Assembly: GCA_029258755.1 (NCBI GenBank)
Contig: JAPDKC010000020.1
Coordinates: forward strand, 532 to 64,531
DNA from: an archaeon
Lineage (GTDB): Archaea; Iainarchaeota; Iainarchaeia; Iainarchaeales; DTGL01
DNA length: 64,000 bases
Direction: 5' to 3'
The translations under genes were made by a program, and so were the position numbers. This document shows positions 12,276-40,802 of this stretch, in pieces; position 1 is the stretch's first letter; each line of letters begins with the position of its first letter. The notes under the pieces were generated by a model. That model made no database searches. It was not told the origin of the DNA and saw only the letters and a list, made by a program, of their open reading frames with translations.

Positions 12276-13241
12276 TTATTCCAAGATCTCCACATGGTCT
12301 ATCAAGCCATCGCTGTCCAAATCTAGGCCTTCGACAACATGAGCGCAGCTACGCTTGTTAAACCTATTCGGCTTTATTATCTCCTCTGTGTTTTGAATTA
12401 AAGCCAAAACAGCCGCTTTTGTTCCAGCATTCCTTTTTCCCGCTATAAACAATATAGCCTTATCCTCGAAGTAAGGGTGCTTTATCTTCTCTATTATCCC
12501 AACAGCGTCTTCCGTGTATTCTTTCTCGGAGTTCTCGCTTATTATGAGCCAGTGAGCGTTCTTCTGCTCAAACCTTATGGAAAGATGTTCGTTCACTTCA
12601 GCGCTTGTTTTATTTGTTATTGGACCTCCGATAACTATAATATTATCATTTACTTTGCTTATATGGGGAAGCATCGTATCTAAAAACACGTAAGGGTAAC
12701 GAATGCTTCTGCAGAGGGTTCCGAGAAAGCCAGCAAGTTCTGTAGCTATGTGAGCATCTCTGGCCCTTGCTTTAAATACGCCGTGCGAATCTGGGGCGCC
12801 AACAACAATCTTCGCGTTGAGCTCGTTGTTTTCTATAAATGGATGGAAGAATTCTTGCAAGGGCTTTGGCATCCCTTTTTCCATGCCCTGAAGCTTTGAT
12901 ATGCTTGCAGAATCAAGTTGAGGAACAAAAGCAAAGCAGCTAACGTTTGCTTTGTAGTATTTCGCTAAGCCGCCTCTTTTTTCCTCGCGCTTTGTAAGCT
13001 TCACTAAGCCAGCGTTTTTGAGTTTATTTATATAATAATAAACCTCTTGTTGCTGCAATCCAAGTTTCTTTGCGATGTCTGCAGGATAGCTTTCCTTTTT
13101 GGAGAGCTCTTTAAATATAAGCCAGCATTTTTCATTTAGCAATGGTTTCAGCTTTTCTGTTGATTCTAGTACTTCAGCATCACACACGAAATACCTATTA
13201 TCTTTTTGAAAGGATAAACGAGCAAGCAATCTTACCACCAT
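12276..13241 (-). CDS. Winged-helix (ArsR/MarR-like) domain protein with an uncharacterised C-terminal domain
   Basis: 'SYPADIAKKLGLQQQEVYYYINKLKNAGLVKLTKRE' is a wHTH recognition helix plus wing. The C-terminal roughly 200 aa has no recognised motifs. Same strand as, and upstream of, the membrane-protein/SMC-like pair. Confidence 0.5.
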   Translation of the reverse strand: MVVRLLARLSFQKDNRYFVCDAEVLESTEKLKPLLNEKCWLIFKELSKKESYPADIAKKLGLQQQEVYYYINKLKNAGLVKLTKREEKRGGLAKYYKANVSCFAFVPQLDSASISKLQGMEKGMPKPLQEFFHPFIENNELNAKIVVGAPDSHGVFKARARDAHIATELAGFLGTLCRSIRYPYVFLDTMLPHISKVNDNIIVIGGPITNKTSAEVNEHLSIRFEQKNAHWLIISENSEKEYTEDAVGIIEKIKHPYFEDKAILFIAGKRNAGTKAAVLALIQNTEEIIKPNRFNKRSCAHVVEGLDLDSDGLIDHVEILE

Positions 13242-16508: not shown

Positions 16509-17131
16509 AAATAACTATTGAGAGTATTCTTGAGGAGGCTAAAAAGCTTATTGATGACCCCGAGCCAAAATTCTGGGAACTTATAAACAAGCTGGAAAAG
16601 GTTGAGATAAAAACAGAACTCCTTGGCGAAATAGAGGATAACGTTGTAATAAAAGGTGATCTTTACTTAGGTAAAAATTCTGTGATAAAATCTGGAACGA
16701 GGATAGAAGGAAATGTATATATAGGTGAAAACTGCACCATAGGACCAAATGCTTATTTTCGTGGCAATGTTATCATTGCCAACAACTGCAAAATCTCGTA
16801 CTCGGAAATAAAAAACTCCATAATACTTTCACATACAAATGTTCCGCATTTCTCTTATGTAGGAGATTCTATATTGGGGGAAGATGTAAATCTCGGTGCA
16901 GGTACGAAGATAGCAAACCTGCGCTTAGATGAAAAAAATATTCAAGTAGAGATTTGCGGAAAAAAGTTTGACAGCAATAGAAGAAAGCTGGGTGCCCTTA
17001 TAAAATCCGGCACAAAAACTGGAATAAACGTTTCCATAAACTGTGGCGTTGTAATTGGAAAAAATTGCTTTATATATCCAGGGGCATTTGTTAAAGAAAG
17101 CATAGCCGATAATACTATTTTTACGCGCTAA
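16505..17131 (+). CDS. Hexapeptide-repeat (left-handed beta-helix) acetyltransferase, resembling the GlmU C-terminal domain
   Basis: Repeated [LIV]G-x4 hexapeptides ('IGENCTIGPNAYFRGNVIIANNCKI'). No N-terminal nucleotidyltransferase domain. Translationally coupled to glmM. Confidence 0.7.
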   Translation: MKITIESILEEAKKLIDDPEPKFWELINKLEKVEIKTELLGEIEDNVVIKGDLYLGKNSVIKSGTRIEGNVYIGENCTIGPNAYFRGNVIIANNCKISYSEIKNSIILSHTNVPHFSYVGDSILGEDVNLGAGTKIANLRLDEKNIQVEICGKKFDSNRRKLGALIKSGTKTGINVSINCGVVIGKNCFIYPGAFVKESIADNTIFTR

Positions 17132-19850
17132 GAAATTCAAGCTCTTTTCCAGTAAAACCATCGATAAAAATGCGCCTTTTCTTCCCGGTTTTTATATTCT
17201 CCACAATTCCTTCATAGACAGGCCAGTAAATCTCTTTTATAGATGTTACCACGAGCTTCTTCCATATCTTTTGTAGAAGTTCACGCACCTCTCTTTTCGA
17301 ATATCTTTCTTTTTCCTTCATGATAGCTTGTGCAGTAACCAAAGGAAGTTTTTGCAGAGAAAGATGCAGGCTGTGCAAAGGTGTTCTTGGCAGGTCAAAC
17401 TTCTTTTTTATACAATAAAGGATAACACCATTTTTCTCCATCTTTTTAACAAGATCGTTTTCAATAAGCTTCTTTAATATTCTTTTTACCTTGTTTTCAT
17501 CCATAAACGCCTTCTTGCTTACCTGGGATGCACTTAGCGGGGTTGTCAAAAAGTTCAGTACCTTTATCTCATTATCGCTTAAACCATAGAGATCCTTAAG
17601 CCCCTTGGATTCTACAAAGCCTTCTTTAAAATGGAGAAATTCTCCAGTGTAAGAATTTACAAAAAGCACACTTTGCCTAAACATATTCTTTTCGTTAAAA
17701 TAGTTGAATTCGACCTTATAAACAGGTATATACTTGAGGTTAGTTTCTATTAATCGCTCGCTTCCGGGAAGCAAACCAAAGAGCTTGCTAACCTTTTTCC
17801 TAATTTTAGATTCAGCCTTTTCTTTTGCATATCTTATTGGAAAGGCTAAAAGCTCAAGTTTTTCTTCTGCCTCCTTTTCAGGGATTTCAACGGGCTTTTC
17901 TTCCTCAACTTTTTTCATTTCCGGTTCTGACACAGCAGCAGGCTTCTTTTCCTCCAGAAAAACCATGCCTTCTTCCTCATTAACTTTGGCTCCCTTGTTT
18001 TCTAATTCTAATAGCACATCCTGAAGCTCAAGGTTTGAGCTATACTTGGTATTTAACGAGTTCAACGTTCTGCTTATTTCCGCAAGCTTTGCCCTTCCGT
18101 CCCTCTTCAATCTTGCCCAGTACATAGAGCTTATAAGCTTTAGCACTTGCTCATCGCTTAGCTCAACTTTTGTTTCGATTGTTTCGGTTTCCCTGCCTTC
18201 GTGCTGGCTCATTCTAGGCCTTACCTTCATTATGAAAGCCCTGCTTGTTTCTTCTCTGCGGTCACCAACCAAAGCAACGCCTGTAGGCAAAGTCCTTATA
18301 AAAGCCCCTGCCTTGAATTTGTGCGGAATTATTGCAGGTGTTCGCTTATAAACAGCCTTTATATCATCGTTGAAAACAAGCTTGTGAACAATTATTATAT
18401 CAAGCTGGCTTAGTACCTTAGTATCTATTGCCGATGGCTGCTGTGTTGCAAAAACCAGAGAGCAGCCAGGCCTGCGACCCTGCTTTACATATTCTATTAA
18501 AGCATCGCTTGCTGCTGTTTTGATATTTCCACTCGGAATGAGCGTATGTGCTTCATCTATAAAAAGCCACGTTGGCGGAATTTGGATCTCGAGAAGCTCT
18601 TCTGCTGAGCTTTCAAACCGCTTAGCAGCTTCTTTCCTTGTAGCTATCTTTCTTGCAGCTAATATGCGTCTGGCCAGAATTCCTATTACAAGTGCAGTAA
18701 CATTATCATCCAAAAAACTTGTGTCTATAATTGTAAGCTGACCTTCTCTGCTAAGTTCGCTAAGCGGTGTGCCTTCTATATCAAAAATGCCCCATGATTT
18801 AGCAGCCTCAAACCTACTTGTTAGAGCTCTTATAGAATCCACTTTATAGCCGCGGTCTCTAGAATTAAGTTCAGCATCATTTTCTAGGCAGAATATGATA
18901 TCATCAAGTGAATAATCCTTAGTGCCTTTAATTCGCTCTTTATCTATGGTAATATATCCTTTCTCAACTTTCTCTAAAGCTTTTTCTAGCAGCAAACCCG
19001 TTGGGCTAAAGCGATCTATTCCAAATGTTAGGCACCAATCCTGAGCTGTAAGCATTGAGGGCTTTATGGAGAATGTTGCATCATAGGTGCCTTTAGGCGT
19101 CTGAGACTCCATCCCCTTTGGAATAAAAACAACTATATTATCAAGCCCTTTTGGCTCAAGCCCCCATTTTTTTAGCTCCTCAACCTCTTTTTCTTCGCGA
19201 TTGGCATATCTCATGCTCCAGAAGACGCCGACAGGATCAACAACAATTATGCCAACATCGGGGTTTTTTAGCGCTAGCTCCTCAGCAATCACGCCAAGCA
19301 CATAACTTTTTCCGCTGCCACGAGCACCGCAAACAAAAACAACATGAGGATTTAAACTATCTAACAAGATATCCTTTTCTTTATAGCCAGGTTCGTGTAC
19401 GCGGCCTATAAAAAGAGCTGCTTGTGATCCATACTTTTCATATACGGATTTTTTTCTGCCAATAAACGCTCGGCCTTCCTCATCTTCAAGGAATTTTAGT
19501 TCAGGAAGTATAATATCGCTTCCCTCCGCAACTACAACCTTCCCTTTATCCTCCTTCTTAGCTTTTTTCTTATCTCCTTCTTTTTTCTCCCCTTTTTTAT
19601 CTTCCTTAATTTCTTCTCCCCTTTCCTCTTCAAGAACGGCTTCCTCTTTTATGTTTTTTTCTTTTTCCGGCTCAGCGTATATGCTTTCGCTTTCTTTACT
19701 TTCCTTTTCTATTTTTTCTTTTTCCTTTTTTGCAATCTCACTCAGCTTTTTCCTAGCTTCTTTCAGCTCCTCATCTAAGCCAAACACTTCCTCAAATAAG
19801 TCCTGCTCTTCACTATCCTTCTCTATAACAACCCTTTTCTTCTCGGCCAT
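17121..19850 (-). CDS. HerA/FtsK-superfamily P-loop ATPase (DUF87-like) with a K/E-rich disordered N-terminus and a C-terminal extension of about 340 aa containing a winged-helix-like segment
   Basis: Walker A 'VFVCGARGSGKSYVLGV' and Walker B 'WLFIDEAHTLIP'. HerA-type 'SLVFATQQPSAIDTKVLSQLDIIIVHKLVFNDD'. The N-terminal 110 aa is KE low-complexity. Confidence 0.65.
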   Translation of the reverse strand: MAEKKRVVIEKDSEEQDLFEEVFGLDEELKEARKKLSEIAKKEKEKIEKESKESESIYAEPEKEKNIKEEAVLEEERGEEIKEDKKGEKKEGDKKKAKKEDKGKVVVAEGSDIILPELKFLEDEEGRAFIGRKKSVYEKYGSQAALFIGRVHEPGYKEKDILLDSLNPHVVFVCGARGSGKSYVLGVIAEELALKNPDVGIIVVDPVGVFWSMRYANREEKEVEELKKWGLEPKGLDNIVVFIPKGMESQTPKGTYDATFSIKPSMLTAQDWCLTFGIDRFSPTGLLLEKALEKVEKGYITIDKERIKGTKDYSLDDIIFCLENDAELNSRDRGYKVDSIRALTSRFEAAKSWGIFDIEGTPLSELSREGQLTIIDTSFLDDNVTALVIGILARRILAARKIATRKEAAKRFESSAEELLEIQIPPTWLFIDEAHTLIPSGNIKTAASDALIEYVKQGRRPGCSLVFATQQPSAIDTKVLSQLDIIIVHKLVFNDDIKAVYKRTPAIIPHKFKAGAFIRTLPTGVALVGDRREETSRAFIMKVRPRMSQHEGRETETIETKVELSDEQVLKLISSMYWARLKRDGRAKLAEISRTLNSLNTKYSSNLELQDVLLELENKGAKVNEEEGMVFLEEKKPAAVSEPEMKKVEEEKPVEIPEKEAEEKLELLAFPIRYAKEKAESKIRKKVSKLFGLLPGSERLIETNLKYIPVYKVEFNYFNEKNMFRQSVLFVNSYTGEFLHFKEGFVESKGLKDLYGLSDNEIKVLNFLTTPLSASQVSKKAFMDENKVKRILKKLIENDLVKKMEKNGVILYCIKKKFDLPRTPLHSLHLSLQKLPLVTAQAIMKEKERYSKREVRELLQKIWKKLVVTSIKEIYWPVYEGIVENIKTGKKRRIFIDGFTGKELEFLSA

Positions 19851-21456: not shown

Positions 21457-21638
21457 TACTCGCTTTTACTCTGGCTTTGCGTCATAATTATTTTCCCCAA
21501 CAAATTTCCAGTTACATTTTATCTCTATAAATGCAAATATTTAATTTTTATCTAAGAGGGGCCGCGCGTAGCGATAATTTTGATACAAAACTCCAGCAAT
21601 AAAAAATATAAAAAGGAGCCGAAAACATTATTTTTACT

Positions 21639-22925
21639 ATGCACGCTGGCGAAAAATTTTTTATTGCTTTTATAGGAGTCGCTGCTCTATTGTTTTTTAT
21701 AAGCATTATTCTTCTTTATTTACCGGCAGAAACCGGACAAACAAACAAGAGCATAAGTGGTTCTGCTGAAAAACCTTCGCAAGATATTTCACAAGATATA
21801 CTTAAAGAGATTGAAGAAAAAACTGGCATAAAGATACCTGAAGAGGTTAAAGAAGCTGCTAAAGACGCTTCCGTTTGCGAGAGGATATCTAAAGGACTGG
21901 GCAGGGATATGTGTTATGAGAATTATGCTACACTATATAAAAACCCCGCCCTTTGCGAAAAGATAGAGAATGAAACATATAGAAACCAATGCTATTCGCA
22001 TACAAGTGAGTTTTCTTCAGATCCAGCGCTATGTGAAAAGATAACTTCTGATGTTGAGAGGGATAGGTGCTATAAAAATATTGCACTAAATAAAAAAGAT
22101 GTTTCGCTATGCGACAAGATTTCTGGAAATGTGGAATACATAAAAAAGTGGGACTGCTATAAGGATGTTGCCATAGCGAAAAAGGACCCAACAATTTGCG
22201 ATATGATGGAAGAACAGCGTGAAGTATGCTACTCCGATTTAGCAACCGCTCTTAATGATGCATCTCTTTGCAGCAAGAGTTCAAATCCGGAGTATTGCTA
22301 TTACACTATTGCATTAAACACATTGGACCCAGCTCCTTGCAAGAATAGTGGTGATTGGAAACAGAAATGTTACGAAGAGATTGCATTAACTAAGAAGGAT
22401 TATTCAATTTGTGAAAAATTAGAGCTGCGCAAAGCAGATTGTTTTTATAAAATTGCTTTGGACAAAAAAGATCCTTCGATTTGTGGTAAAGCTTCAGAGG
22501 AAAGCGTTGCAGGTAACTGCTATTACCTCCTTTCCATAGATATGAACAACCCTTCTCTTTGCGATGAGATTCTAGATACAACCTATAAAAATCGTTGTTA
22601 TAGCACGTTTGCTTATGCATTGAATGATACTTCATTTTGTGAGAAGATGGAAACTAGTGAAGGGGAAAAAGATTGTTATATTACACTTGCGAAAAAACTT
22701 AATGACAGCAGCATATGCGGCAAAGCCACAGAGGTTGAGATTAAAGACAAGTGCTATCATGAAATGGCTGTAAAAGCCAAAGATGGTTCTTTATGTGCTT
22801 ATATTCAAAGCACGGAAGAGAAGGATTCCTGCTATTTAGAGGTCGCCCTAAATATAGATGATCCTACCTTATGTGATAACATTCAAGATTCCGGAAAGAG
22901 GGAGTTTTGCCTTAAGTATAGCTGA
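21639..22925 (+). CDS. Membrane-anchored, cysteine-pair tandem-repeat protein (about 14 degenerate repeats of 24-29 aa)
   Basis: N-terminal TM 'FFIAFIGVAALLFFISIILLYL'. From about 21870 onward the unit is C-x2-[IL]-x5-9-C-[YF]-x3-[AL]-x3-4-[DN]-x-[ST]-[LIF], for example 'CEKITSDVERDRCYKNIALNKKDVSL' and 'CEKLELRKADCFYKIALDKKDPSI'. Confidence 0.6.
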   Translation: MHAGEKFFIAFIGVAALLFFISIILLYLPAETGQTNKSISGSAEKPSQDISQDILKEIEEKTGIKIPEEVKEAAKDASVCERISKGLGRDMCYENYATLYKNPALCEKIENETYRNQCYSHTSEFSSDPALCEKITSDVERDRCYKNIALNKKDVSLCDKISGNVEYIKKWDCYKDVAIAKKDPTICDMMEEQREVCYSDLATALNDASLCSKSSNPEYCYYTIALNTLDPAPCKNSGDWKQKCYEEIALTKKDYSICEKLELRKADCFYKIALDKKDPSICGKASEESVAGNCYYLLSIDMNNPSLCDEILDTTYKNRCYSTFAYALNDTSFCEKMETSEGEKDCYITLAKKLNDSSICGKATEVEIKDKCYHEMAVKAKDGSLCAYIQSTEEKDSCYLEVALNIDDPTLCDNIQDSGKREFCLKYS

Positions 22926-22939
22926 CAGATTTCCTCAGC

Positions 22940-23431
22940 TTATTCTTTTTTGAAAATCACGTGCTCTGTGTAAGGATCCCCTTTCCATAAATGTTTTGTG
23001 GTTTTGTAATCCCAGTTATCGCCAAGCAAATAGTGCACCTTAAAGCGCATATACGTTGCATCAAGCTTCTCTGGTTCTACATGACCTTTTAGGTTTGGAA
23101 AGGGGTCTGTATGAAACTGATAAACTATCCTGTTCTCTGAAACTTCTGGAAATTCAACATGCAGGCCAACACTTTCGTCTCTGGTGCGCAAAACCCTTGC
23201 GAAATCCCGCGGATCGCCTTTTTTAAATCCCATCGCGTCATAGGCCTTTTTCAAGCCCCGTTCCATAATTTTTGTGAATATCTCCAGAGCTTTTTCTTCG
23301 CCAAATTCTTCCTTTAAAACAAGAAAAGTATTCTCATACAAGGCAAAGAATGGAGCATTATATTCTTTCATGAACCATAACAATAACCAAAAATAATAAA
23401 TTTCTTTTCGATCTTTTAAAAGAGTAAGCAT
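22940..23431 (-). CDS. Hypothetical protein
   Basis: Intact 163-aa ORF filling the gap between flanking genes. No recognised motifs. Confidence 0.4.
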   Translation of the reverse strand: MLTLLKDRKEIYYFWLLLWFMKEYNAPFFALYENTFLVLKEEFGEEKALEIFTKIMERGLKKAYDAMGFKKGDPRDFARVLRTRDESVGLHVEFPEVSENRIVYQFHTDPFPNLKGHVEPEKLDATYMRFKVHYLLGDNWDYKTTKHLWKGDPYTEHVIFKKE

Positions 23432-24821
23432 GATAGATGAGTATGAGCAGTCACGAAAAATAAAATTTATTATGGTATTGGGGCTTTTTCTAGCCTTCTT
23501 TTTGATTTTTAGTTTATGGTTAGTGACATATTTTCAACCAAAAAAAGCACCCGACGAAAAAACTCAGAGCGAGGATATAACACAAGCACCACCAAACAAA
23601 TACAACCAAGTTCAAAAGTCTAATAAAATAGATCTAGATCCATCTCAACTGCCAGAAAAATGGAGGAATTTATATGAAAAAATAAGGACTATAAGCGTTA
23701 CATGTAACGAAATCACTTCAAATATTCTTTCATCTATTGATGGTGTTTTAAATGGTAATATTGCCAAAGAAGAATTTTGTGCAGGTCCTGGAAAACAGCT
23801 GAGAGAGAAGTTGGCCCAGCTGATAGAGGACGTCAACAGTTTAAGAAAAATCAAAGAAAGTAAAGATTATAATAAAATGGATTCTTGGGAAAAGGACATT
23901 GTAAAGAAGGTGGTGAAATACTCTGTTGGTCCTTCAGATTGGAAAAAATGGAGCTCATATATCAAAAAATATTGTGAAGGGGTTTTTACAGAAGAGTCTC
24001 TGCAACTTATAAAGAAAGAGATAGAAAAATATAGCAAGTATGGTGGTTCTTGCTCAATGTGGGAGGATTATAGCGAACGTGTGCTAAAGTATGAACTAGC
24101 AAAAGAAGAGGGGGTTATGAATGCATATCAATTAGGCACAGTAGTAGAGCCAATTAACAAGGATTTGAATGTTTCTATAAAAAGCATAAAGATTGTAAAG
24201 GCGCCTGTGGTTAGATACCTTTCGGAAAGAGACTTTAATTCAGAGGAGTTAATTGAAATAAAAAGAAAAGTTAGAGATTTTTATCTTAACGGTGGTTGTG
24301 AAGAATACGACCTTCCTTCATATTATATGGAAAAATGCGAAGAATATGAAAAAAATTATAAGGAAATTGTGGATAAATACAGAAATAGACTGCCTGAGCT
24401 TATCTCCATAAAATGCGAGTATACTTACAAGTATATTTATACAGATTACGGAGAGTATGTGACACCGACAACCTATATGGTCGATATTTTAATATATGAT
24501 AAACGTAAAGATAAATTTTACCATGGGAGCATTCTTCCTCCCTACACAAATTTCAGTGATAACGTCCAGTCCTTATCTTATTTAACGCCACACATAGTAA
24601 TAAGAGAATTTTTCGATAAAAATTTAGCAGAAATAAAATATCCGTTATATATTATCTGTGTACATGAAAAGGTCTTGGGTCGCACGAAATTTAACAAAGA
24701 ATCATTCGAGGTTATGGTACTAGATGATATGTATTATTGGATATATTTTAAGGATGAATCATATTATAGTCCTTCTATCACAATATTTGAGTTTATTCCT
24801 TCCCAAGTGTTTCAAAAATAG
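23430..24821 (+). CDS. Hypothetical membrane-anchored protein (N-terminal TM; Y/K/E-rich, Cys-containing ectodomain)
   Basis: TM 'FIMVLGLFLAFFLIFSLWLVTYF' followed by about 430 aa with no recognised motifs. Confidence 0.45.
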   Translation: MIDEYEQSRKIKFIMVLGLFLAFFLIFSLWLVTYFQPKKAPDEKTQSEDITQAPPNKYNQVQKSNKIDLDPSQLPEKWRNLYEKIRTISVTCNEITSNILSSIDGVLNGNIAKEEFCAGPGKQLREKLAQLIEDVNSLRKIKESKDYNKMDSWEKDIVKKVVKYSVGPSDWKKWSSYIKKYCEGVFTEESLQLIKKEIEKYSKYGGSCSMWEDYSERVLKYELAKEEGVMNAYQLGTVVEPINKDLNVSIKSIKIVKAPVVRYLSERDFNSEELIEIKRKVRDFYLNGGCEEYDLPSYYMEKCEEYEKNYKEIVDKYRNRLPELISIKCEYTYKYIYTDYGEYVTPTTYMVDILIYDKRKDKFYHGSILPPYTNFSDNVQSLSYLTPHIVIREFFDKNLAEIKYPLYIICVHEKVLGRTKFNKESFEVMVLDDMYYWIYFKDESYYSPSITIFEFIPSQVFQK

Positions 24822-24876
24822 GAGGCTTACAGTAAAACTTATAAATGATTTTATGCTCCTTTTACAGTGATGTGCT

Positions 24877-25446
24877 ATGTCTGAGGAAAAGGTTTTGTAT
24901 GAGGGAAAGCCGAGCAAGAAGCTTTTTCTTGCCTGGCTACTATCTCCAAGGGTTCTTGGCATCATTATACTTGCTTTAGGAATAGCCACTATTTATTATT
25001 CTCTGATGGTGGCAAAAACCTTCTATGAAATAGCTTCCAAGGGGCCTAAGGAAGTGCTACACGGGCAGGAATATAGTTATGATAATCCCTTCTATGTTGG
25101 CGCATTTTGTTTTGCAATAGCTTTTTTGCTGTACCTTACATATCTCTACTTTTTAATGAGAACATACCAATATAGAATTACAAGCAAAGGCATTTACTTT
25201 AGCGGAGGCATCTTTATAAGGAAATCAAAGTTTGTGCCATTTTACAAGGTTACAAATATTGAGATAACGCAAACAATTGTTGAAAGAGCTTTTGGTATAG
25301 CAACAATCAATATACAAACTGCTGGCATGGGCATGCACATTCCAGAAATCCGGTTTGAAGGACTTGAAGATGTAGAAAAGCCTTATGGAATAATAAAAGA
25401 GGCTATGGGAAAGCTCCAGAAGCAAGCCAAGCTTCACAGCGAATAG
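24877..25446 (+). CDS. Membrane protein with a bacterial-type PH domain (YdbS/YdbT, DUF304-like)
   Basis: Two N-terminal TM helices, then 'YRITSKGIYFSGGIFIRKSKFVPFYKVTNIEITQTIVERAFGIATINI', which is typical of bPH_2. Confidence 0.6.
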   Translation: MSEEKVLYEGKPSKKLFLAWLLSPRVLGIIILALGIATIYYSLMVAKTFYEIASKGPKEVLHGQEYSYDNPFYVGAFCFAIAFLLYLTYLYFLMRTYQYRITSKGIYFSGGIFIRKSKFVPFYKVTNIEITQTIVERAFGIATINIQTAGMGMHIPEIRFEGLEDVEKPYGIIKEAMGKLQKQAKLHSE

Positions 25447-25498
25447 TAGCAGCTTTTTTAATTTTGTTTCTGCCAAATTTTAACATAGAGATGCCTAT

Positions 25499-25570
25499 GG
25501 GCCGGTAGCTCAATGGAAGAGCGCTGCCTTCGCACGGCAGAGGCTCCGGGTTCAAGTCCCGGCCGGTCCA
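25499..25570 (+). tRNA. tRNA-Ala (anticodon CGC), no encoded CCA
   Basis: Cloverleaf folded by hand. Acceptor GGGCCGG/CCGGTCC with a G3:U70 wobble, the Ala identity element. D-arm GCTC/GAGC. Anticodon arm CTGCC-TTCGCAC-GGCAG. T-arm CCGGG-TTCAAGT-CCCGG. Discriminator A. Confidence 0.85.
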
Positions 25571-25617
25571 TGCCAAACAATTTTAACTTCTTTTGTTTCT
25601 ATCTATATGGGGGCAGG

Positions 25618-26424
25618 ATGGTAATAATCTATAAAAAGGGAAGCAATTTCCAGCTTTCCCTAACAGATTCGAATGCTGCAAAGCTTGGCTTAAAGCCACA
25701 GGCGGAATACGAGTTGGTTAAGCTAAGCGATGATGTTTTCGCTTTGGTTGAGAAGAGGGTTTCGCAAAGGACTGAAGAACTCGATAAGCGAATTTTTTCG
25801 CTTCTTAAGCGCAAAAAGCTTTCTGAAAGGGTTGAAGGCAAATTCGAGAAGTTATTAAATAGCGCCGAGCTCAAAAGATTTAAGGAATTGATAAGGCAGG
25901 GCAAGATAATCCCATTCAAGCTTTCAGCAAAATATAAGAGAGCGGTATATAAAACTCCCGAAGAGATAAAAGGCGTGGAAAAGAAGGAAAGAAAACAAGA
26001 GCTTCCTTACACCGAAGGAAAAGAAGCAAAGGGCATAACAGAACCTGTAGGGGAAGAGCTAACCCCGATTGTTGCACCGCGCATTGATCAAACAAAGCAG
26101 TTTGAAAAGCATTCATATGCGATAATAAGGGATGAGGCACTTGCAAAGGAGCTCTCTTCGCGACTAAGCTCGGATATAAAGCGCAGAGAAGTTTTGGGCA
26201 TAAAGACCTTCGATGGTGAATATTATATTATAAAGAGAGAGCTTTACGAGAAGTATAGCCCTGTAATATTAAAGTATATTCAGGATAATTCTCCAATAAG
26301 TGCTGACAGGATCGCTAGCGATTTGCGCATAGATAAAAAGCTTGTGAAAATCGTCTGTGAGTTTTTGCGCGAAGAAGGCGAGATTGTAGAGAGACGCAGA
26401 GAGCTTTACGAATACGTCAAGTGA
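25618..26424 (+). CDS. Hypothetical K/E-rich protein, probably with a C-terminal winged-helix domain
   Basis: The track ORF at 25513 begins inside the tRNA. The start is reassigned to the internal Met 'MVIIYKKGSN' at 25618. Confidence 0.45.
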   Translation: MVIIYKKGSNFQLSLTDSNAAKLGLKPQAEYELVKLSDDVFALVEKRVSQRTEELDKRIFSLLKRKKLSERVEGKFEKLLNSAELKRFKELIRQGKIIPFKLSAKYKRAVYKTPEEIKGVEKKERKQELPYTEGKEAKGITEPVGEELTPIVAPRIDQTKQFEKHSYAIIRDEALAKELSSRLSSDIKRREVLGIKTFDGEYYIIKRELYEKYSPVILKYIQDNSPISADRIASDLRIDKKLVKIVCEFLREEGEIVERRRELYEYVK

Positions 26425-31721: not shown

Positions 31722-33320
31722 ATGCCAAATAAAAAGACGATTAAAGAATTTTTAAAACCAGATTGGAAAAAGATTGTTCTGAGCTTTTTGCTGCTTTTAG
31801 CTTGTTTTTTGTTTTTCGTTTCAGTAACTGCTTTGCCCATGCCAGTCTCCATGATTCCTGTTATTACAGGCTTGTTCTTGGCACTCCTTTTGCCCTTTGC
31901 CGTGGTTTATAATCTGTTGTCTTTTGGTATTCCGGATATTGTTGCATTAATTATAGCTTTTAGTTTGCATGTTTTCTATTTTTATGTCGTTTCCTGCTTT
32001 TTAGTGTGCTTATTGGCACGCCTAAAGAATTTGATAGTGTCCATAAAATGGAGTAAATGGGATGCAAAAACACTTGGTGTTCTGGCGAGTATAGCAGTGA
32101 TTGGAATCGCTGTTTATGGCTTTCTAAATCTTGGTTGGACCGACATATTTATTCCGACTGCTGATGACAGCGGAGCAACGCCAGAAGGGATTACAGAGGT
32201 GGTTAAGGCAAATAACCAGTTTGCTATCAAGCTTTACTCGGAAATAAGCAAAGATTCTAATGGAAACATATTTTTCTCTCCTTGGAGTGTATCAACTGCA
32301 ATGGCAATGGTGTATGAAGGTGCTCGGGGCCGGACGGCAGATGAAATAAGATCCGTTTTTCAGTTTCCTGAAGATAATGACAGAAGAAGGTTTTCCTTTG
32401 CGAGACTACTGAATACAGTGAACAAGACTAGCGGAAGATACGAATTTCATGTTGCGAATGCAATATGGTTGCAGAAGGAATATCCTTTTTTAGAGGAATA
32501 CAAAAATATAATATGGAGATATTATTTAGGTGAAATCAGGAATGTAGATTTTGTAAATGATGCTGCCAGCTCAAGTAATGAGATAAATAACTGGGTTGCA
32601 GACCATACAAATAACAAAATAAGAGAAATTGTGCGTCCAGAGATGTTCAACGAACTTACCCGTGCTGTGCTTACGAATGCGATATATTTCAAAGGAAAAT
32701 GGAAATACCAGTTTGATAAGCAACACACAAAACCGGAGGATTTTATCCTTGGTTCTGGAGAAAAGGTTAAGGTTCCAATGATGCAGCTTATGGATTCAGA
32801 TTTGGAATTCAATTATGCGGAAATGGATGGTGTGCAGATACTTGAAATAAAATATCAGGGTGACAAAATATCAATGCTGGTTCTCCTGCCAAGAACTAAC
32901 ATACACTACTTAGAATCAATACTGACTGAAGAAAGGCTTCAGAAGTGGCGAAACAGCCTTAAACCCGAAATAGTTTACATATACATGCCCAAATATAAAT
33001 TTGAAACCTCTTACTCATTAACAGACTATTTAAAAGATATGGGAATGCATTCACCTTTTGAATGGCCTGGTGCAGATTTCTCTGGAATTGATGGAACAAA
33101 GACGCTTTACATTAGCGATATCTTGCATAAAGCATACGTAGATGTCTGTGAGGAAGGCACAGAGGCAGCAGCGGCAACTACCATTCTTGTTACGAAAGGA
33201 GCAGCACCCAAGCACCCAGTAGTATTTAGAGCAGACCGTCCGTTTATATTCATAATACAGGAAAGCAAAACGGGAAACATTCTTTTCATTGGCAGGGTAA
33301 TGCAGCCTGTAGGTTATTGA
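31722..33320 (+). CDS. Serpin (serine protease inhibitor) with an N-terminal multi-TM membrane anchor
   Basis: About 140 aa with 3-4 hydrophobic helices, then a serpin core 'NIFFSPWSVSTAMAMVYEGARGRT', hinge/RCL 'EEGTEAAAATTILV' and C-terminal 'FRADRPFIFIIQESKTGNILFIGRV'. Confidence 0.8.
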   Translation: MPNKKTIKEFLKPDWKKIVLSFLLLLACFLFFVSVTALPMPVSMIPVITGLFLALLLPFAVVYNLLSFGIPDIVALIIAFSLHVFYFYVVSCFLVCLLARLKNLIVSIKWSKWDAKTLGVLASIAVIGIAVYGFLNLGWTDIFIPTADDSGATPEGITEVVKANNQFAIKLYSEISKDSNGNIFFSPWSVSTAMAMVYEGARGRTADEIRSVFQFPEDNDRRRFSFARLLNTVNKTSGRYEFHVANAIWLQKEYPFLEEYKNIIWRYYLGEIRNVDFVNDAASSSNEINNWVADHTNNKIREIVRPEMFNELTRAVLTNAIYFKGKWKYQFDKQHTKPEDFILGSGEKVKVPMMQLMDSDLEFNYAEMDGVQILEIKYQGDKISMLVLLPRTNIHYLESILTEERLQKWRNSLKPEIVYIYMPKYKFETSYSLTDYLKDMGMHSPFEWPGADFSGIDGTKTLYISDILHKAYVDVCEEGTEAAAATTILVTKGAAPKHPVVFRADRPFIFIIQESKTGNILFIGRVMQPVGY

Positions 33321-34410: not shown

Positions 34411-35409
34411 CTACATCACCAAGAGCCTATCCAAACCTATAAAAGCTAAACCAAAAAGGGCTAGCAAAAACACATAGTAGATGTAAATCCTTGCAGCTTG
34501 ATCAACCTTTAAGCGAGCAGTAGCAGCGCTTACCAATATCAAGCTAGCAAACATAATAGCAAATGTTTTAACAAGGAAGAAAATAAAATCGGCAATTAAA
34601 GCAAAAATGCTTGGTAACGCTAAAAATGCGCTTATGTTCCATGGGAAGAAAAGAGCTACTATTAAGCTTGCAAATGCAAGTGCTTGCACAGCTTGTGCCA
34701 TAAGAAGCAGAGCCAAATTTCTGCCGCTATACTCTACAAGCACACCTTCAGCTATTTCTGTTTTAGCTTCGCTTATGTCTGCAGGAAGCTTAGCGACCTT
34801 TGCTGGGAATACTGCCAAAGCACTGACTAAAAGAAGAGCAACGCCAAGCTTGCCAATCCCATCAACAAGATTCCAAATAGGATATGCTGTTAAGGTATCA
34901 AATGAGAATGCATATGCACCCGCATGACTAAAAGAAAGGAGCCAAGCAAAAGCGATTACAACAACAGAAAGCACAAATTCATAGCTCATCATGAGCACTA
35001 TTTCGCGTTGAGCGCCTATGCTTGCATAGGGAGATGCAGAAGCAAAAGCGCCGATAGCTAGAGCTAAAGGTGGTATAATAAACAAATAAAGCACTAGGAT
35101 TAGATCACCATGTGCTTGCAAAAGAGGGGGCATGCCCGCAAATGGCATATAAAGAAACAAAAGAAGAGCGCTAGCTAGAGCAACAAGGGGCATAGCGTTA
35201 AAAAGCCATTTTATGGAGTTTGCTGGCACTATATTTTCTTTTATAAATAGCTTTTTTATGTCAAGAAAAGGCTGGATTATTGGCGGTCCTATGCGCGCTT
35301 GCATCCTTGCAATTAGCTTTCTTTCCAAACCGTTAAATAGTAATGAAAGTAAGAGAGCTAGTGTTATTATGAAAATGGAATGCGCTGCTACATGCAGGAT
35401 GTTAAACAT
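34411..35409 (-). CDS. mbhM: Membrane-bound hydrogenase subunit M (NuoH/complex I subunit 1-like)
   Basis: Polytopic 332-aa protein in the NuoH-equivalent position, between the large subunit and the ferredoxin subunit. Confidence 0.7.
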   Translation of the reverse strand: MFNILHVAAHSIFIITLALLLSLLFNGLERKLIARMQARIGPPIIQPFLDIKKLFIKENIVPANSIKWLFNAMPLVALASALLLFLYMPFAGMPPLLQAHGDLILVLYLFIIPPLALAIGAFASASPYASIGAQREIVLMMSYEFVLSVVVIAFAWLLSFSHAGAYAFSFDTLTAYPIWNLVDGIGKLGVALLLVSALAVFPAKVAKLPADISEAKTEIAEGVLVEYSGRNLALLLMAQAVQALAFASLIVALFFPWNISAFLALPSIFALIADFIFFLVKTFAIMFASLILVSAATARLKVDQAARIYIYYVFLLALFGLAFIGLDRLLVM

Positions 35410-36649
35410 GCTCCCACCTTTTCAACCTTTCTTTAATTTTTAAGGTTTTTTTAACACACAATTCATGAATTTTTTCCTGAGCTATTATGGCTTCTTTGTC
35501 CGCTAACACTGCCCTATTTGCACATGACAGGCAGGGATCGATGGATGCAACTATTATTGGCACATCTGCAAGCTCGGAATCTTTAAGCATAGGTACAATA
35601 GTATGCATATTTGCATATGTAGGGGCCCTTATTTTCCATGCAAAGAGGGTTTCGCTATTTTGCATTCTCAAATAATGTATAAGCTCGCCTCTAGGTGCTT
35701 CTACTAAAGCTATGCCCTCATTATCTACCTTTTTCAAATCCACCAGAAGTTTTTGTAAAACCGGTTCATATAGGGTAGGTCCTTCCGGAAGCTCCTTAAT
35801 GCATTTTTCAATTAATTCTAATGATTGCTTTATCTCAAGCAAGCGCACAATTATACGATCGAAAACATCGCCTCTAATTTCGCCAAGAAGCACATCTGGC
35901 GTTATTGCTTCCACATCAAGGTCTGCGTAAGCGGCATAAGGAAAGTCTTGCCTAGTATCCTTTTTAACACCGGAAGCTCTTGCGGTTGGCCCAACAGCAC
36001 AAAGCTTTAATGCCTCTTCCTTGCTTAGCACACCTATGTCTCTAGTTCTTAACTTTATGGTTGGATCATCTAAAAGTATTTCGCACAGCTTTTCATAAGC
36101 TTTTTTGTAGTAAGCGAGCATCTCCTTGATTTTTGGAATTTGCTTTTTGCTTATATCTCTGCGCACGCCACCTATCATAAGTACGGCTTTTGTAATTCGG
36201 TTACCTGTTAGATATTCTATAACGTCTAGCACCTTTTCCCTTATGAGCCATATATAATGCAGGATTGAATCAAAGCCAAGTTCGTGAGCGGCAACACCTA
36301 AAAATAGCAGATGCGAATGAATTCTTTCTAGCTCAGCATATATAGTGCGCAAATATTCTGCTCTTTCAGGTACTCTTATGTTTGCCGCATTCTCAACAGC
36401 GATGCAAAACGCTAGTGGATGGGAAATATTACATATTCCGCAAACGCGTTCCGCAAGGTATATGATTTGAATAGGATTCCTCCGCAAGCCCATCCATTCT
36501 ATCCCTCTATGGACATGCCCTAAGGAAAAGCTAGCGTCTTTTACTCGTTCACCTTCTACAAGCACCTCTATCTGAATAGGTTCTTTCAGAGCTGGATGTA
36601 TTGGACCTATTGAAATGCTGCATTTTTTACTTTTGTTCAATTCGCTCAC
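35402..36649 (-). CDS. mbhL: Group 4 [NiFe] hydrogenase large (catalytic) subunit
   Basis: N-terminal Ni-Fe ligand motif 'RVCGICNISH' and C-terminal 'DPCLSCANR'. Length 415 aa. Confidence 0.9.
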   Translation of the reverse strand: MSELNKSKKCSISIGPIHPALKEPIQIEVLVEGERVKDASFSLGHVHRGIEWMGLRRNPIQIIYLAERVCGICNISHPLAFCIAVENAANIRVPERAEYLRTIYAELERIHSHLLFLGVAAHELGFDSILHYIWLIREKVLDVIEYLTGNRITKAVLMIGGVRRDISKKQIPKIKEMLAYYKKAYEKLCEILLDDPTIKLRTRDIGVLSKEEALKLCAVGPTARASGVKKDTRQDFPYAAYADLDVEAITPDVLLGEIRGDVFDRIIVRLLEIKQSLELIEKCIKELPEGPTLYEPVLQKLLVDLKKVDNEGIALVEAPRGELIHYLRMQNSETLFAWKIRAPTYANMHTIVPMLKDSELADVPIIVASIDPCLSCANRAVLADKEAIIAQEKIHELCVKKTLKIKERLKRWEHV

Positions 36650-37154
36650 CTGTGTGCAAATTTTTTGCTATTTTATTAGCTCCTTTTTTATCTTTTCTCC
36701 AAGGGAATACACCAGCTAGTGAATCATCAAGGAATGCTCTTCCGGGGGCAAGCCCTTTTATTTCTATTCCTAAGAACTCTCTTTTTTCCTTCTCAGAGAT
36801 CAGCGCTCCTGGAATAAGGTCTGTAATTGTCTCCATAACAGGCCTTTTCTTTGGCAATTTAACTCTTAATGTAAGCAAAACCTGTTCTTTTGGCGCGGCA
36901 TAATTCAAAGTGAAATGCAACAATATCTCAATGTTTTGCCCGGTATCAACTCCTGAAGATACTGAGAAATGAGGATACTCTTGCAAGGAGAATAGCTTTT
37001 TCACAACATCTTTTAGCTTTTTGTTGCTGACCTCGGCCCAAACACGGTAAGCCCTATTTTTCTTTAAACCATGTTCAGTTGTAACAATCCTGAAATCGCT
37101 AATATCCTTTGCAAGCGTTTCCTTAAGCTTCTCTATAAGTTCTGTTGCTTGCAT
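36627..37154 (-). CDS. mbhK: Membrane-bound hydrogenase subunit K (NuoC-like)
   Basis: Positional and size match (about 175 aa from the internal Met 'MQATELIEKL'). The track ORF extends to 37226 and overlaps mbhJ. Confidence 0.65.
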   Translation of the reverse strand: MQATELIEKLKETLAKDISDFRIVTTEHGLKKNRAYRVWAEVSNKKLKDVVKKLFSLQEYPHFSVSSGVDTGQNIEILLHFTLNYAAPKEQVLLTLRVKLPKKRPVMETITDLIPGALISEKEKREFLGIEIKGLAPGRAFLDDSLAGVFPWRKDKKGANKIAKNLHTGERIEQK

Positions 37155-37573
37155 TTTTTCATCCCCTCTAGCTTTTCCCAAGCTTTTGCTAGGCCATGGA
37201 TTATAGCTTCTGGCCTTGGCGGGCATCCAGGTACGTAAATATCCACAGGTATGATTTTATCTATAGGGCCTTCAAGATTATACGATTCATAGAATACGCC
37301 ACCTGTTGAGCCGCAATTGCCGACAACAACCACAATCTTTGGTTCTGGCATTTGTTCATAAGCTCTAATTAACCTTTCCTTCATCTTTCTCGTAACAGGT
37401 CCTGTAACAAGCAATACATCAGCGTGCCTTGGACTGCCAACAAGCTTTACGCCAAACCGTTCAGCATCGTAGCGCGGTGTTAGCGCGGCTATTATCTCTA
37501 TATCGCAGCCATTGCATGAACCTGTGTTAATATGAAAAACCCAAAGGGACCTTTTCAAAGCATCTAAGCCCAT
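37133..37573 (-). CDS. mbhJ: Group 4 [NiFe] hydrogenase small subunit (NuoB-like, [4Fe-4S])
   Basis: 'GSCNGCDIEI', 'GNCGSTGG' and 'VPGCPPRPE' cysteine motifs. The start is set at the internal Met 'MGLDALKR'. Confidence 0.85.
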   Translation of the reverse strand: MGLDALKRSLWVFHINTGSCNGCDIEIIAALTPRYDAERFGVKLVGSPRHADVLLVTGPVTRKMKERLIRAYEQMPEPKIVVVVGNCGSTGGVFYESYNLEGPIDKIIPVDIYVPGCPPRPEAIIHGLAKAWEKLEGMKKCKQQNL

Positions 37574-37914
37574 TGCAACACCCCTAAAGTAAGCACAGTT
37601 AACAGCAAGGATGCTACAATAACATACCAAAGTGCATAATCGTTAATTATTCCTGTATGTATCTTTGTTATAAGGTTGTAGTAGGGTTTCATCGCCTCAA
37701 AAAAGCCCCAGAAAAGATCACTTGCTTTAACCCTTGATGCTTCGCTTGCAATATTTCCCGAGAAAAATACATCGGCTTTGTATTTACTCGGCTTAAAATC
37801 CTTTTTTCCGAAAGCTCTAAGGATAAAAATAATGATGCATACACCTATAAAAAACGCAACAAACGCTAAGGGATTCCAAAAGCCACTAGCAGTTTTCAAT
37901 ATTGCGAGTGTCAT
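37564..37914 (-). CDS. mbhI: Membrane-bound hydrogenase subunit I (small membrane subunit)
   Basis: 116 aa with two TM helices. Position and size match MbhI. Confidence 0.5.
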   Translation of the reverse strand: MTLAILKTASGFWNPLAFVAFFIGVCIIIFILRAFGKKDFKPSKYKADVFFSGNIASEASRVKASDLFWGFFEAMKPYYNLITKIHTGIINDYALWYVIVASLLLTVLTLGVLQWA

Positions 37915-39446
37915 CCCAAAGCACCTATATATGCTTTTTGGTTAAGCAAAGCCATGGCTGCGGGCTCAACTATAGTATTTAATACAATATCTGGAAATAA
38001 TCCAAAAATTATAATAAAGAAGCTCAGCATTCCCATTGCAAAAAGCATTGGCTTAGGCACTTCTTTTACGTTTGATAGTGCTTTTAGCTCTGGACCTAAA
38101 AATGCTGAACAAAACACCTTTACGAATGAAACTAATGTAAGAATGCTTACAATCATAGCTATAATAGAAAATAAGGGATTAAAGATATAAGAGGACTCAT
38201 AGATTAAGAGTTTTGAGGCAAACCCGTTTGTTGGCGGCAGGCCAGCGATTGCGGCAGCACCTGTAATAAAGAATATTGTTGTTGCTGGCATCCTTCTTGC
38301 TAGGCCGCTTAGCTCATCAAGATTTCTTTTACCGGTGCTATAAATTATTGCGCCAGCTGTTAGGAAAAGCAAGCCTTTATATAAGGCATGATTTATTATG
38401 TGAAAGATTCCGCCTTCCATAGCTTTCAACGCATAAATGTTTGCGGTATTGCCAACCAGCAAACCTATGCCAACACCAAGAAGCATGTAGCCAGTTTGCG
38501 ATATCGCATGATATGCCATTAAGCGCTTTATATCCTTTTGAGGTAAAGCCATAGTTACACCAATAAACATTGAAAGAATTCCAAGTAAGATTATAGCATA
38601 CGCGATTATATGGATTAACGGAAATGCTCCAAATAAGCTGAATGATACTCTAAAGAGAGCATACAAACAAGATTGGCTTGCAACAACAAGCGTAGCGGTA
38701 ATAGCCGCTGGTGCTCTACTGTAAGCGTCCGGCACCCAGAAATGCATTGGCACAGAGCCGGCTTTCATGGCTAAGGCGGAAACAAGCAATGCTAAAGCGA
38801 TAATGTCCACAAACGAAAACCTAAGCACTTTGGCTAAAGCAGCGATATTAAGCATATCGTATTGTGCATACAAAATCCCAACAGCTAGTAAGACCATGAG
38901 CGATGCAAGCGAGCTTACGATTAGGTATTTATAGGAAGCTTCACTAGCTTTAAAATCGACAAAGAAGGCAATAAGTGCAGCTGAGCTTATTGAAAGCACC
39001 TCTAAAAATACAAAAAGATTGAATAGGTCTGCTGTGCAAGCCAATCCAAACATTCCAGCAAGCATCAAGAACAGCAACGAGTAATACTTTGCTTGCGCTT
39101 CGCGAATAAAGCTTGCGGAATATAGAAATGCCGCAGTAGCAACAATAGAGCTAAGCAGTAGCATAAATGCAGAGAAAGCATCAACTATGAATACTATTCT
39201 TATTGGAATAGCTAGTTTTGCAGGCATTGTGATGCTGGGCAGCTCAGCGCCCATTGTATAAACCTTAGTTCCATTAGCAAATACATCCACAGATGTTAGG
39301 AAAGCGGTACAAACAACTGAAAGCATCCCTACAGGCACAACAATATTTTTTACTTTTGCACTAAGCTTTTCAGTAATTGCTGTAAGAAAAGCAAACGCTA
39401 GCGGAAATGCTATTAGTAAAGCAACGCTGTGCTGAAGTAAGCTCAT
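37911..39446 (-). CDS. mbhH: Membrane-bound hydrogenase subunit H (MrpD/NuoL-type antiporter-like subunit)
   Basis: 511 aa with 14 or more TM helices. The proton-pump family motif region 'WVPDAYSRAPAAITA' is present. Confidence 0.8.
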   Translation of the reverse strand: MSLLQHSVALLIAFPLAFAFLTAITEKLSAKVKNIVVPVGMLSVVCTAFLTSVDVFANGTKVYTMGAELPSITMPAKLAIPIRIVFIVDAFSAFMLLLSSIVATAAFLYSASFIREAQAKYYSLLFLMLAGMFGLACTADLFNLFVFLEVLSISSAALIAFFVDFKASEASYKYLIVSSLASLMVLLAVGILYAQYDMLNIAALAKVLRFSFVDIIALALLVSALAMKAGSVPMHFWVPDAYSRAPAAITATLVVASQSCLYALFRVSFSLFGAFPLIHIIAYAIILLGILSMFIGVTMALPQKDIKRLMAYHAISQTGYMLLGVGIGLLVGNTANIYALKAMEGGIFHIINHALYKGLLFLTAGAIIYSTGKRNLDELSGLARRMPATTIFFITGAAAIAGLPPTNGFASKLLIYESSYIFNPLFSIIAMIVSILTLVSFVKVFCSAFLGPELKALSNVKEVPKPMLFAMGMLSFFIIIFGLFPDIVLNTIVEPAAMALLNQKAYIGALG

Positions 39447-39865
39447 AGCTCATCTAACCTCCCTAGTTTTGTAGCATCCAAAGTGCCAGTTTGCTGATAG
39501 ATTCTAATTGCTAACGAAAGCATAAGGGCTGTTACAGCTAAACTTATTACTATATTTGTCAGAGTTAGTGCTTGCGGGGTTGGAAGCACCATTCTTGTTT
39601 CCGCTTCGCTTGCTTTAATGGTAGCTTCTGTAAATATGGGAGCAACACCCCCTTTTCTGTAACCTGCGGATATAAGAAATAAGTTTATCCCGCTGGCGAT
39701 AATAGCAATGCCTATAGCCATCTTTATCAGATTCTTTTTGAATAAAAGCGCATATAGCCCAAAAAGAACTAAGCAAATCGCAACTAAAAAGTTGGCATTT
39801 TGCAGTATTAGTAGAGCAAACAATAGAGCTTTTTTATTTTCCAGCATGTTTGGACACCTTTTCAT
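39443..39865 (-). CDS. mbhG: Mbh Mrp-module subunit G (MrpC-like)
   Basis: Small polytopic membrane protein, coupled by a 4-nt overlap. Assigned by synteny. Confidence 0.55.
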   Translation of the reverse strand: MKRCPNMLENKKALLFALLILQNANFLVAICLVLFGLYALLFKKNLIKMAIGIAIIASGINLFLISAGYRKGGVAPIFTEATIKASEAETRMVLPTPQALTLTNIVISLAVTALMLSLAIRIYQQTGTLDATKLGRLDEL

Positions 39866-40301
39866 TCAGCATTAAAAGCATAATAATAGTAAGCGCGCAG
39901 CTTACCTCTAAGCCAATAAGAATATTCATTAAAGGTATAGTGCCAGCGGTATTTATGTAAGCTTCTTTTGTCCCGAAAGGAACGCTTGCCCCAAACATTG
40001 CCCCGGAATTTGCCAAAAAATTGTTGAGGAAGCTTTTTCTGAGCCCAAGAAGGGCTAAAAAAACAAATCCAAATAGAGCCAAGCTTTCTGCAACACTTAG
40101 CAGTTCTTTGTTAAGCATATGCTTGCTTTGTTTACCAAAAGCTATAAAGAGCAAAGCAAAGCAGCTTGCTATAATAACACCGCCTTGAAATCCTCCGCCC
40201 GGTGTAAGATGGCCGTGTGCGATTATATAAAGCCCGAATGTTATCAAAGGCGCTAAAACAACAAGTGCTGTTATCTTTACAATTTTCGACATATCTCTCA
40301 T
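39834..40301 (-). CDS. mbhF: Mbh Mrp-module subunit F (MrpB-like)
   Basis: Synteny and TM content. Confidence 0.55.
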   Translation of the reverse strand: MRDMSKIVKITALVVLAPLITFGLYIIAHGHLTPGGGFQGGVIIASCFALLFIAFGKQSKHMLNKELLSVAESLALFGFVFLALLGLRKSFLNNFLANSGAMFGASVPFGTKEAYINTAGTIPLMNILIGLEVSCALTIIMLLMLNEKVSKHAGK

Positions 40302-40564
40302 TTTGGCACACCACCTCTAAAAAGAAGAATGACTCCGCTTACGGCAGCAAAAAGCACTGTAGCTTCGCCTAAGGTGTCAAGTCCCCTATAGTCAAAAACT
40401 ATGGAAGCGACAACATTATTGCTTGCTGTTTCTATTTGTGCATTTTTTATAAAATATTCGTCCATTGTAGTTTCTGTTGGGCTGCCAAATGGTCTAAGTA
40501 GTAAAGCACATGCTATCAAAAAATACGCAAAAATTATTACAAATATTATTTTAGCTGCTTTCAT
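40298..40564 (-). CDS. mbhE: Mbh Mrp-module subunit E
   Basis: Synteny; 88 aa with two TM helices. Confidence 0.5.
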   Translation of the reverse strand: MKAAKIIFVIIFAYFLIACALLLRPFGSPTETTMDEYFIKNAQIETASNNVVASIVFDYRGLDTLGEATVLFAAVSGVILLFRGGVPK

Positions 40565-40802
40565 CTTCCAACCTCCTAGTCTTCTTAATCGCTAGCACAA
40601 AAATGGCTGTAGTTAAGCAGCCGCCAACAGCAGCTTCGGTTATGGCAACATCCGGTGCCTGAAGCAAGAAGAATTCTAGTGAAAGTAGAAAGCTCATTGC
40701 TGCCAACATAACTACGCTGACTAAAAGGTCTTTGGCTTCTATCGCTAGCAAAGCGCTTGCAAGTATTGCAATTAACGTTATGATGTGTAGCACTATTCTC
40801 AC
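40551..40802 (-). CDS. mbhD: Mbh Mrp-module subunit D
   Basis: Synteny; 83 aa with two to three TM helices. Confidence 0.5.
   Translation of the reverse strand: MRIVLHIITLIAILASALLAIEAKDLLVSVVMLAAMSFLLSLEFFLLQAPDVAITEAAVGGCLTTAIFVLAIKKTRRLEDESS

Follow-up and report, generated by a model that had tools for sequence, protein, structure and literature searches.

Alpha-alpha solenoids of the tetratricopeptide repeat (TPR) and half-a-TPR (HAT) type are right-handed stacks of antiparallel helix pairs that act as binding scaffolds; the TPR unit has 34 residues and lacks an invariant cysteine pair. Sel1-like repeat (SLR) proteins use longer units of 36–44 residues, and their members HcpB and HcpC, the Helicobacter cysteine-rich proteins, carry one disulfide per repeat, which makes them, by analogy, a direct precedent for disulfide-stapled repeats. 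Regularly placed conserved cysteines are also found in the repeat region of Helicobacter pylori CagY, a surface-exposed, K/E-rich alpha-helical array for which disulfide stabilization has been proposed (PMC2581425). Its motifs are 38–39 aa long (A motif) and vary by DNA-level recombination. Here we analyze a gene for a 428-aa membrane-anchored protein with 14 cysteine-pair helical repeats, encoded in a 64,000-nt stretch (hereafter the window) of contig JAPDKC010000020.1 from a DPANN archaeon related to Candidatus Iainarchaeum. By its predicted fold, the protein is a new variant among the known alpha-alpha solenoid repeat proteins, with a repeat unit of only about 26 residues.

The 28 cysteines of the protein lie between residues 80 and 424 (6.5% of all residues) and their spacings strictly alternate between 9–15 residues and 14 residues (12,14,12,14,12,14,15,14,10,14,9,14,10,14,10,14,12,14...). 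With unit boundaries set four residues ahead of each odd cysteine, residues 76–428 (nt 21864–22922) fall into 14 tandem units, the full ones 23–29 aa long and the last shortened to 21 aa. The array opens with the first cysteine of a unit (Cys1), and the protein ends four residues past the last second cysteine (Cys2). Alignment of the units gives D-p-S-[LI]-C-e-K-I-x(5-10)-[KR]-D-x-C-Y-x-x-[VI]-A-x(4). From each Cys2 to the Cys1 that follows, the gap measures exactly 14 residues in 13 of 13 cases; none of 100,000 residue shuffles of the repeat region reached 13 such gaps, the maximum being seven. A hidden Markov model (HMM) of the repeat recovered all 14 units, so that the count and coordinates proposed in the initial annotation are confirmed, and it had no match outside this open reading frame (ORF) in a six-frame translation of the whole window. 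At the DNA level, Tandem Repeats Finder (TRF) detected no tandem repeat within the gene; the units are old and diverged.

A scan of contigs with the single protein returned only two orthologs, both from Candidatus Iainarchaeum metagenome-assembled genomes (MAGs) and with the same start: L002 (JAGGVE010000034, 65% identity) and L003 (JAGHBI010000041, 61% identity). Looking up the exact protein in a contig index gave no match. All three proteins have 28 cysteines in 14 units, and their differences in length stem from insertions in the Cys1–Cys2 loops of units 10 and 11, where the loop grows from 12 to 17 residues (both units in L002, unit 11 in L003). The overall ratio of nonsynonymous to synonymous substitutions (dN/dS) against the orthologs is 0.09–0.18, with synonymous sites near saturation, which argues for a real gene under purifying selection. 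Constraint is uneven along the protein. Residues 1–49 are only 10–22% identical among the orthologs, followed by a cap (residues 50–75) with 81% identity to both; units 1–8 are 77–83% identical (dN 0.10–0.13, computed over residues 76–281) and units 9–13 only 35–62% (dN 0.34–0.40 for residues 282–428). The distal half of the array is thus the more plastic one.

Based on an alignment of 68 relatives (A1), AlphaFold2 returned an all-helical model with a mean predicted local distance difference test score (pLDDT) of 86.8, a predicted TM-score (pTM) of 0.73 and 299 residues at pLDDT ≥90. A transmembrane (TM) helix at residues 2–27, in line with a Kyte-Doolittle hydrophobic segment at residues ~2–33, is followed by residues 32–47 with pLDDT <50 and no regular structure and by two cap helices (50–62 and 68–74). 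In the array, a six-residue helix carrying Cys1 (helix A) alternates regularly with a 13–15-residue helix carrying Cys2 (helix B). Most of units 1–8 exceed pLDDT 90, except unit 6 and the start of unit 7; the weak parts of the model are units 6–7 and 11–12, with ten-residue blocks down to pLDDT 49–77. Over residues 211–240 the three blocks average 73, 49 and 58, and residues 221–227 stay below 50. Hence the array is predicted with high confidence to form an alpha-alpha solenoid whose hairpin, at 26 residues, is unusually short. This agrees with the initial annotation, which had proposed a solenoid behind a single N-terminal TM helix and could assign the repeat to no known class.

Searches of curated families bear out the latter point. 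Pfam gave no match in the repeat region of the query at E≤1 and no family over the repeats of 78 relatives (68 at E≤0.01 and ten long ones at E≤1e-3), and NCBIfam returned nothing. A phmmer search of all PDB sequences yielded two non-significant matches (E 1.1), both to the stalk and cap (query residues 38–74) and none in the repeats, and the A1 profile had no PDB match at E≤10 in a set that includes at least one SLR structure (c5321, 4bwr). In the literature, we found no description of such a repeat in DPANN archaea or bacteria of the Candidate Phyla Radiation (CPR). As far as Pfam, NCBIfam and the PDB go, the repeat family therefore appears to be undescribed.

Alternatively, the array could be a highly divergent, homologous offshoot of the TPR/SLR superfamily with shortened helices instead of a separate repeat class. 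The two-helix units share the overall alpha-alpha solenoid architecture of the TPR clan, the Hcp proteins have one disulfide per repeat, as is proposed here, and the top Foldseek matches in the PDB are TPR (LGN, OGT), HAT (spliceosome) and SLR (c5321, 4bwr) proteins with reported probabilities of up to 0.99. These matches are generic and weak, however, with E-values of 2.3e-3 or higher, TM-scores of 0.07–0.28 and root-mean-square deviations of 15–34 Å. The unit of 23–29 residues (consensus 26) is shorter than the 34 residues of TPRs and the 36–44 of SLRs, none of the Pfam searches above matched TPR or Sel1 (PF08238) models, and hhalign gave a probability of 0.1% between the family profile and a genuine TPR protein from the neighborhood of a relative. 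We consider such a shared origin unlikely. By analogy, the Hcp/SLR proteins nevertheless seem the closest functional and structural counterpart, although the protein differs from them in its six-residue first helix, in its cysteine spacing (9–17 residues within and 14 between units), in being a membrane-anchored archaeal protein and in that its own disulfides are only proposed. No sequence similarity to CagY was detected; in contrast to the recombining CagY motifs, the units here are diverged and constant in number among orthologs.

The repeat is far from rare. An exhaustive profile search of 1.84 billion cluster representatives returned 14,997 at E≤1e-3, 7,559 at E≤1e-10 and 1,548 at E≤1e-30, where the counts refer to clusters at 50% identity. 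The 113 relatives from a word-indexed search were without exception unnamed or "hypothetical", and every source name returned for members was "hypothetical protein". Members with a taxon name belong to DPANN archaea, counting Altiarchaeota (Candidatus Diapherotrites, Iainarchaeum/"ainarchaeum", Woesearchaeota, Altiarchaeota/Altiarchaeales), or to CPR bacteria (Parcubacteria, Nealsonbacteria), plus one unclassified "bacterium". Two of them, P0041 and P0068, carry locus tags of one Diapherotrites MAG and lie on one 269,610-bp contig, so that paralogs can share a genome. Unit numbers in relatives range from ~6 to 16 and are odd as well as even. The family consensus DPSLCEKIEDEEYKDSCYYEIAIAKK, 26 residues long and derived from 1,629 units, matches the motif noted in the initial annotation and has Cys1 in 98% and Cys2 in 99% of units. 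The other conserved positions (D1, S3, I/L4, K7, I8, K/R14, D15, Y18, V/I21 and A22) are mostly of a structural or capping type.

Family members overwhelmingly look exported. An N-terminal hydrophobic segment is present in 210 of 242 members and in 73 of those a [..][GAS]C motif resembling a lipobox comes after it. Fusions to domains characteristic of extracellular proteins occur in some members: CARDB (PF07705), PKD (PF00801/PF18911), PF18884, PsbP-like, DUF5667 or arylsulfotransferase-like propeller domains. The genes next to relatives often encode secreted proteins, including a 953-aa Kazal protein, a VIT/VWA protein, a DUF5667-SurA-type peptidyl-prolyl isomerase and an alpha-2-macroglobulin; a TPR protein adjoining a PrsW protease was also found among the neighbors. 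Because of the TM anchor, the signal anchors and lipoboxes of relatives, the extracellular fusions and the secreted neighbors, an extracytoplasmic location of the repeats, as the initial annotation had proposed, is well supported. In one 719-aa relative (P0056, with a CARDB PF07705 match), a short Cys-pair array precedes a C-terminal segment that by eye resembles a type IV pilin or pseudopilin (ARDSARIADVKQIQTALEMYYNDMGKYP), which would suggest that some members are built into surface appendage proteins.

We propose, as a reading that we hold somewhat more probable than its alternatives taken together, that the protein is a type-II signal-anchored, stalked and disulfide-stapled alpha-solenoid serving as a binding scaffold at the cell surface or elsewhere outside the cytoplasm. 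It would be inserted into the membrane by its signal anchor, and a flexible stalk of ~20–45 residues would hold the solenoid outside the cell. Each of the 14 stacked mini-hairpins would consist of helix A, a variable loop and helix B, and would be closed by one Cys1–Cys2 disulfide, a staple that could make up for how little hydrophobic core a 26-residue hairpin has and turn the array into a stiff rod or superhelix. A partner, either a protein or a glycan, on the organism's own envelope or on a host cell, might then be bound through the variable loops and the surfaces of the helices; we infer the pairing of the cysteines, the scaffold role and the nature of this partner.

The arrangement of the cysteines is compatible with such staples. 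Classified by cysteine spacing, 113 arrays start with Cys1 and end with Cys2, six have the opposite register, 75 are mixed and 134 allow no assignment. Arrays bounded in this way hold whole pairs in whole units, which favors an intra-unit Cys1–Cys2 bond over an inter-unit bond from Cys2 to the Cys1 of the next unit. According to the DSSP helix limits of the model, Cys1 lies in the middle of helix A and Cys2 some six residues past the start of helix B, a placement that would allow a bridge within the hairpin. When the loss of Cys1 and Cys2 was compared, true single-cysteine units turned out to be very rare, and most "missing" cysteines were alignment truncations. In CPR bacteria, a thiol-oxidoreductase family paired with VKOR has been reported (bioRxiv 10.1101/335083).

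Several observations weigh against our proposal. The Cys1–Cys2 C-alpha distance estimated from the DSSP limits could suit a disulfide but does not fall clearly inside the range for one. An Mbh/Mrp-type [NiFe]-hydrogenase-like membrane complex encoded in the window suggests an anaerobic lifestyle, which makes extracellular disulfides less certain, and no Dsb/VKOR-type gene was found among the window ORFs scanned with Pfam (up to ~56 kb, the 64 kb being part of the genome). The gene contexts of five relatives revealed no recurring partner, and hence neither a binding partner nor a conserved neighbor that would point to a specific ligand. The distribution over DPANN and CPR rests on a small labeled sample of ~15–20 members with taxon names.

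The hydrogenase-like complex and the lack of a Dsb-type gene among the scanned ORFs, together with two nearly invariant cysteines per unit, would also fit cysteines that are free thiols or that ligate metals or metal-sulfide centers (Zn, Fe or Cu) within or between adjacent units, as in an extracellular metal-binding or redox-buffering solenoid of an anaerobe. However, no conserved His, Asp or additional Cys was found to complete a metal site; the occurrence of both odd and even unit numbers argues against obligatory four-cysteine sites shared by two units. The predominance of complete Cys1...Cys2 arrays and the Hcp precedent also speak for disulfides, and we regard unpaired or metal-bound cysteines as distinctly unlikely.

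DPANN archaea and CPR bacteria are believed to rely in large part on touching their host cells, and the majority of the surface proteins predicted for them have yet to be annotated. A further-reaching reading of the disulfide-stapled scaffold is that the 26-residue Cys-pair hairpin constitutes an unnamed class of mini alpha-solenoids with thousands of members, which is confined to the ultra-small, largely episymbiotic DPANN and CPR lineages, was spread across domains by gene transfer and provides a common extracellular scaffold for attachment and recognition in episymbiosis. We offer this extension tentatively and consider it doubtful in its full scope. The locus itself is modest, an ordinary gene for a single stand-alone family member, and its value lies in the very large unannotated family to which it leads. 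If this repeat of ~15,000 clusters were defined as a family whose fold is confidently predicted, a sizeable part of this dark matter would gain an annotation, and experiments on adhesion or envelope organization would gain candidates. If confirmed, a disulfide-stabilized helical hairpin of 26 residues would be among the smallest alpha-solenoid units and may interest designers of repeat proteins.

The coordinates of the protein's parts and of the neighboring features are listed in Table 1. The A/T-rich element upstream of the start codon might be an archaeal promoter of a near-leaderless transcript.

Table 1. Features of the repeat gene and its surroundings (positions in the window).
Feature	Positions	Strand	Basis or remarks
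Repeat gene, 428-aa membrane-anchored Cys-pair helical repeat protein	21639..22925	+	Stop codon 22923-22925; ORF list, orthologs, dN/dS
N-terminal signal-anchor TM helix, residues 2-27	21642..21719	+	Kyte-Doolittle residues 2-33; AlphaFold2 helix 2-27
S/Q/E-rich stalk, residues 30-49, poorly conserved, modeled as unstructured	21726..21785	+	pLDDT, ortholog identity
Conserved helical cap before the array, residues 50-75	21786..21863	+	AlphaFold2 helices 50-62 and 68-74; ortholog identity
Repeat units 1-8, residues 76-277, slower-evolving half	21864..22469	+	Cys spacing, unit alignment, ortholog identity, dN
Repeat units 9-14, residues 278-428, faster-evolving half	22470..22922	+	Cys spacing, ortholog identity, dN
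A/T-rich TATA-like element aaaaatataaaaagg	21603..21617	+	~25-35 nt upstream of the ATG; read in the sequence
Gene between the repeat gene and the 463-aa gene	22940-23431	-	ORF list
bPH_2 (PF03703) membrane protein, 189 aa	24877-25446		Two TM segments and a bPH_2 domain
~2-kb stretch with the 463-aa and bPH_2 genes, absent from L002	23372-25497		

The initial annotation had placed the repeat protein at the head of a cluster of membrane-anchored or secreted proteins (21639–25446) and had considered a contingency or surface-variation locus. TM segments do occur in three of the four proteins of this interval, and a repeat array could in principle expand and contract, but a functional surface cluster with a variable number of units is highly improbable and both claims are largely refuted: a minus-strand gene that had been overlooked intervenes, the next two genes are absent from L002 and one of them is an orphan, the relatives share no partner, and the three orthologs agree in unit number under a low dN/dS with no DNA-level repeat. 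The minus-strand gene runs toward the repeat gene, their stop codons 14 bp apart, and is kept in both orthologous loci as a 143-aa protein, and its true start is therefore probably Met21 (nt 23371). Pfam assigned no significant family to its product, with a weak match to ATC_hydrolase (E 0.01).

For the two genes beyond it, the initial annotation had described the products correctly. A single TM segment lies at the N terminus of the 463-aa protein, in which K (11.4%), E (9.7%) and Y (8.4%) are abundant; no homolog beyond itself was found among 5.8 billion sequences, and its poor single-sequence AlphaFold2 model (pLDDT 52.4) reaches moderate confidence only in the TM helix and in a helical stretch spanning residues 70–225. 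In the 189-aa protein, hydrophobic segments at residues 15–48 and 71–95 precede a bPH_2 domain (PF03703) at residues 95–168, which scores 59.5 bits against a cutoff of 22 (E=4e-16); on this match, the assignment can be considered solid. In L002, the closest syntenic locus, tRNA-Ala(CGC) comes immediately after the 143-aa gene and is succeeded, as in the window, by genes for a winged helix-turn-helix (wHTH) protein, a Usp-like protein, glutamate dehydrogenase and TrpRS. Since L002 lacks both genes amid the same flanking genes, the stretch that carries them appears to be an indel specific to the lineage of the window. As for signatures of mobile elements around it, neither flanking direct repeats nor a duplicated tRNA fragment was seen.

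Upstream of the repeat gene, the window has a methyltransferase-like ORF and L002 and L003 a multi-TM protein. The surroundings are a housekeeping region (FtsZ, L11/L1/L10, Rad50, HerA-like, GlmS, EndA, TrpRS), in which the repeat gene, judged by its context, is a stand-alone unit and not in an operon with its neighbors. A HerA/DUF87-type ATPase (17121–19850, minus strand; 909 aa) combines a long, E/K-rich N-terminal part with a TrmB-like wHTH at the C terminus; its L002 ortholog has 987 aa, with the added length within the E/K-rich region. On the other side, a listed 303-aa ORF (25513–26424) begins within the tRNA-Ala(CGC) gene (25498–25571). Its L002 ortholog has 278 aa and starts with MVIIYKKGS, and the start is therefore probably Met36 (~nt 25618). 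All matches of the protein are weak ones to winged-helix domains in its C-terminal part.

Elsewhere in the window, the hydrogenase-like complex occupies positions 34411–41945 of the minus strand, with NuoH-like, NiFe-hydrogenase/49-kDa-like, 30-kDa, 20-kDa, antiporter M-type, MnhB and MnhE genes, and suggests an anaerobic, H2-linked energy metabolism. A 321-aa protein (12276–13241, minus strand) shows an odd pairing of an N-terminal TrmB/ArsR-like helix-turn-helix with a C-terminal "S-layer like family, outer domain" (PF05124, E 3e-12). Between 46621 and 54754, seven of the nine ORFs of at least 150 aa have no Pfam family at E≤1e-4, forming a local island of "dark matter"; the other two have sub-threshold matches to DUF6932 (25.1 bits against a cutoff of 27) and Pribosyltran (24.5 against 26.3). 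Finally, positions 31722–33320 (plus strand) of this DPANN-type archaeal segment encode a serpin that is full-length (PF00079, E 5e-122) and is extended at its N terminus by ~160 residues.

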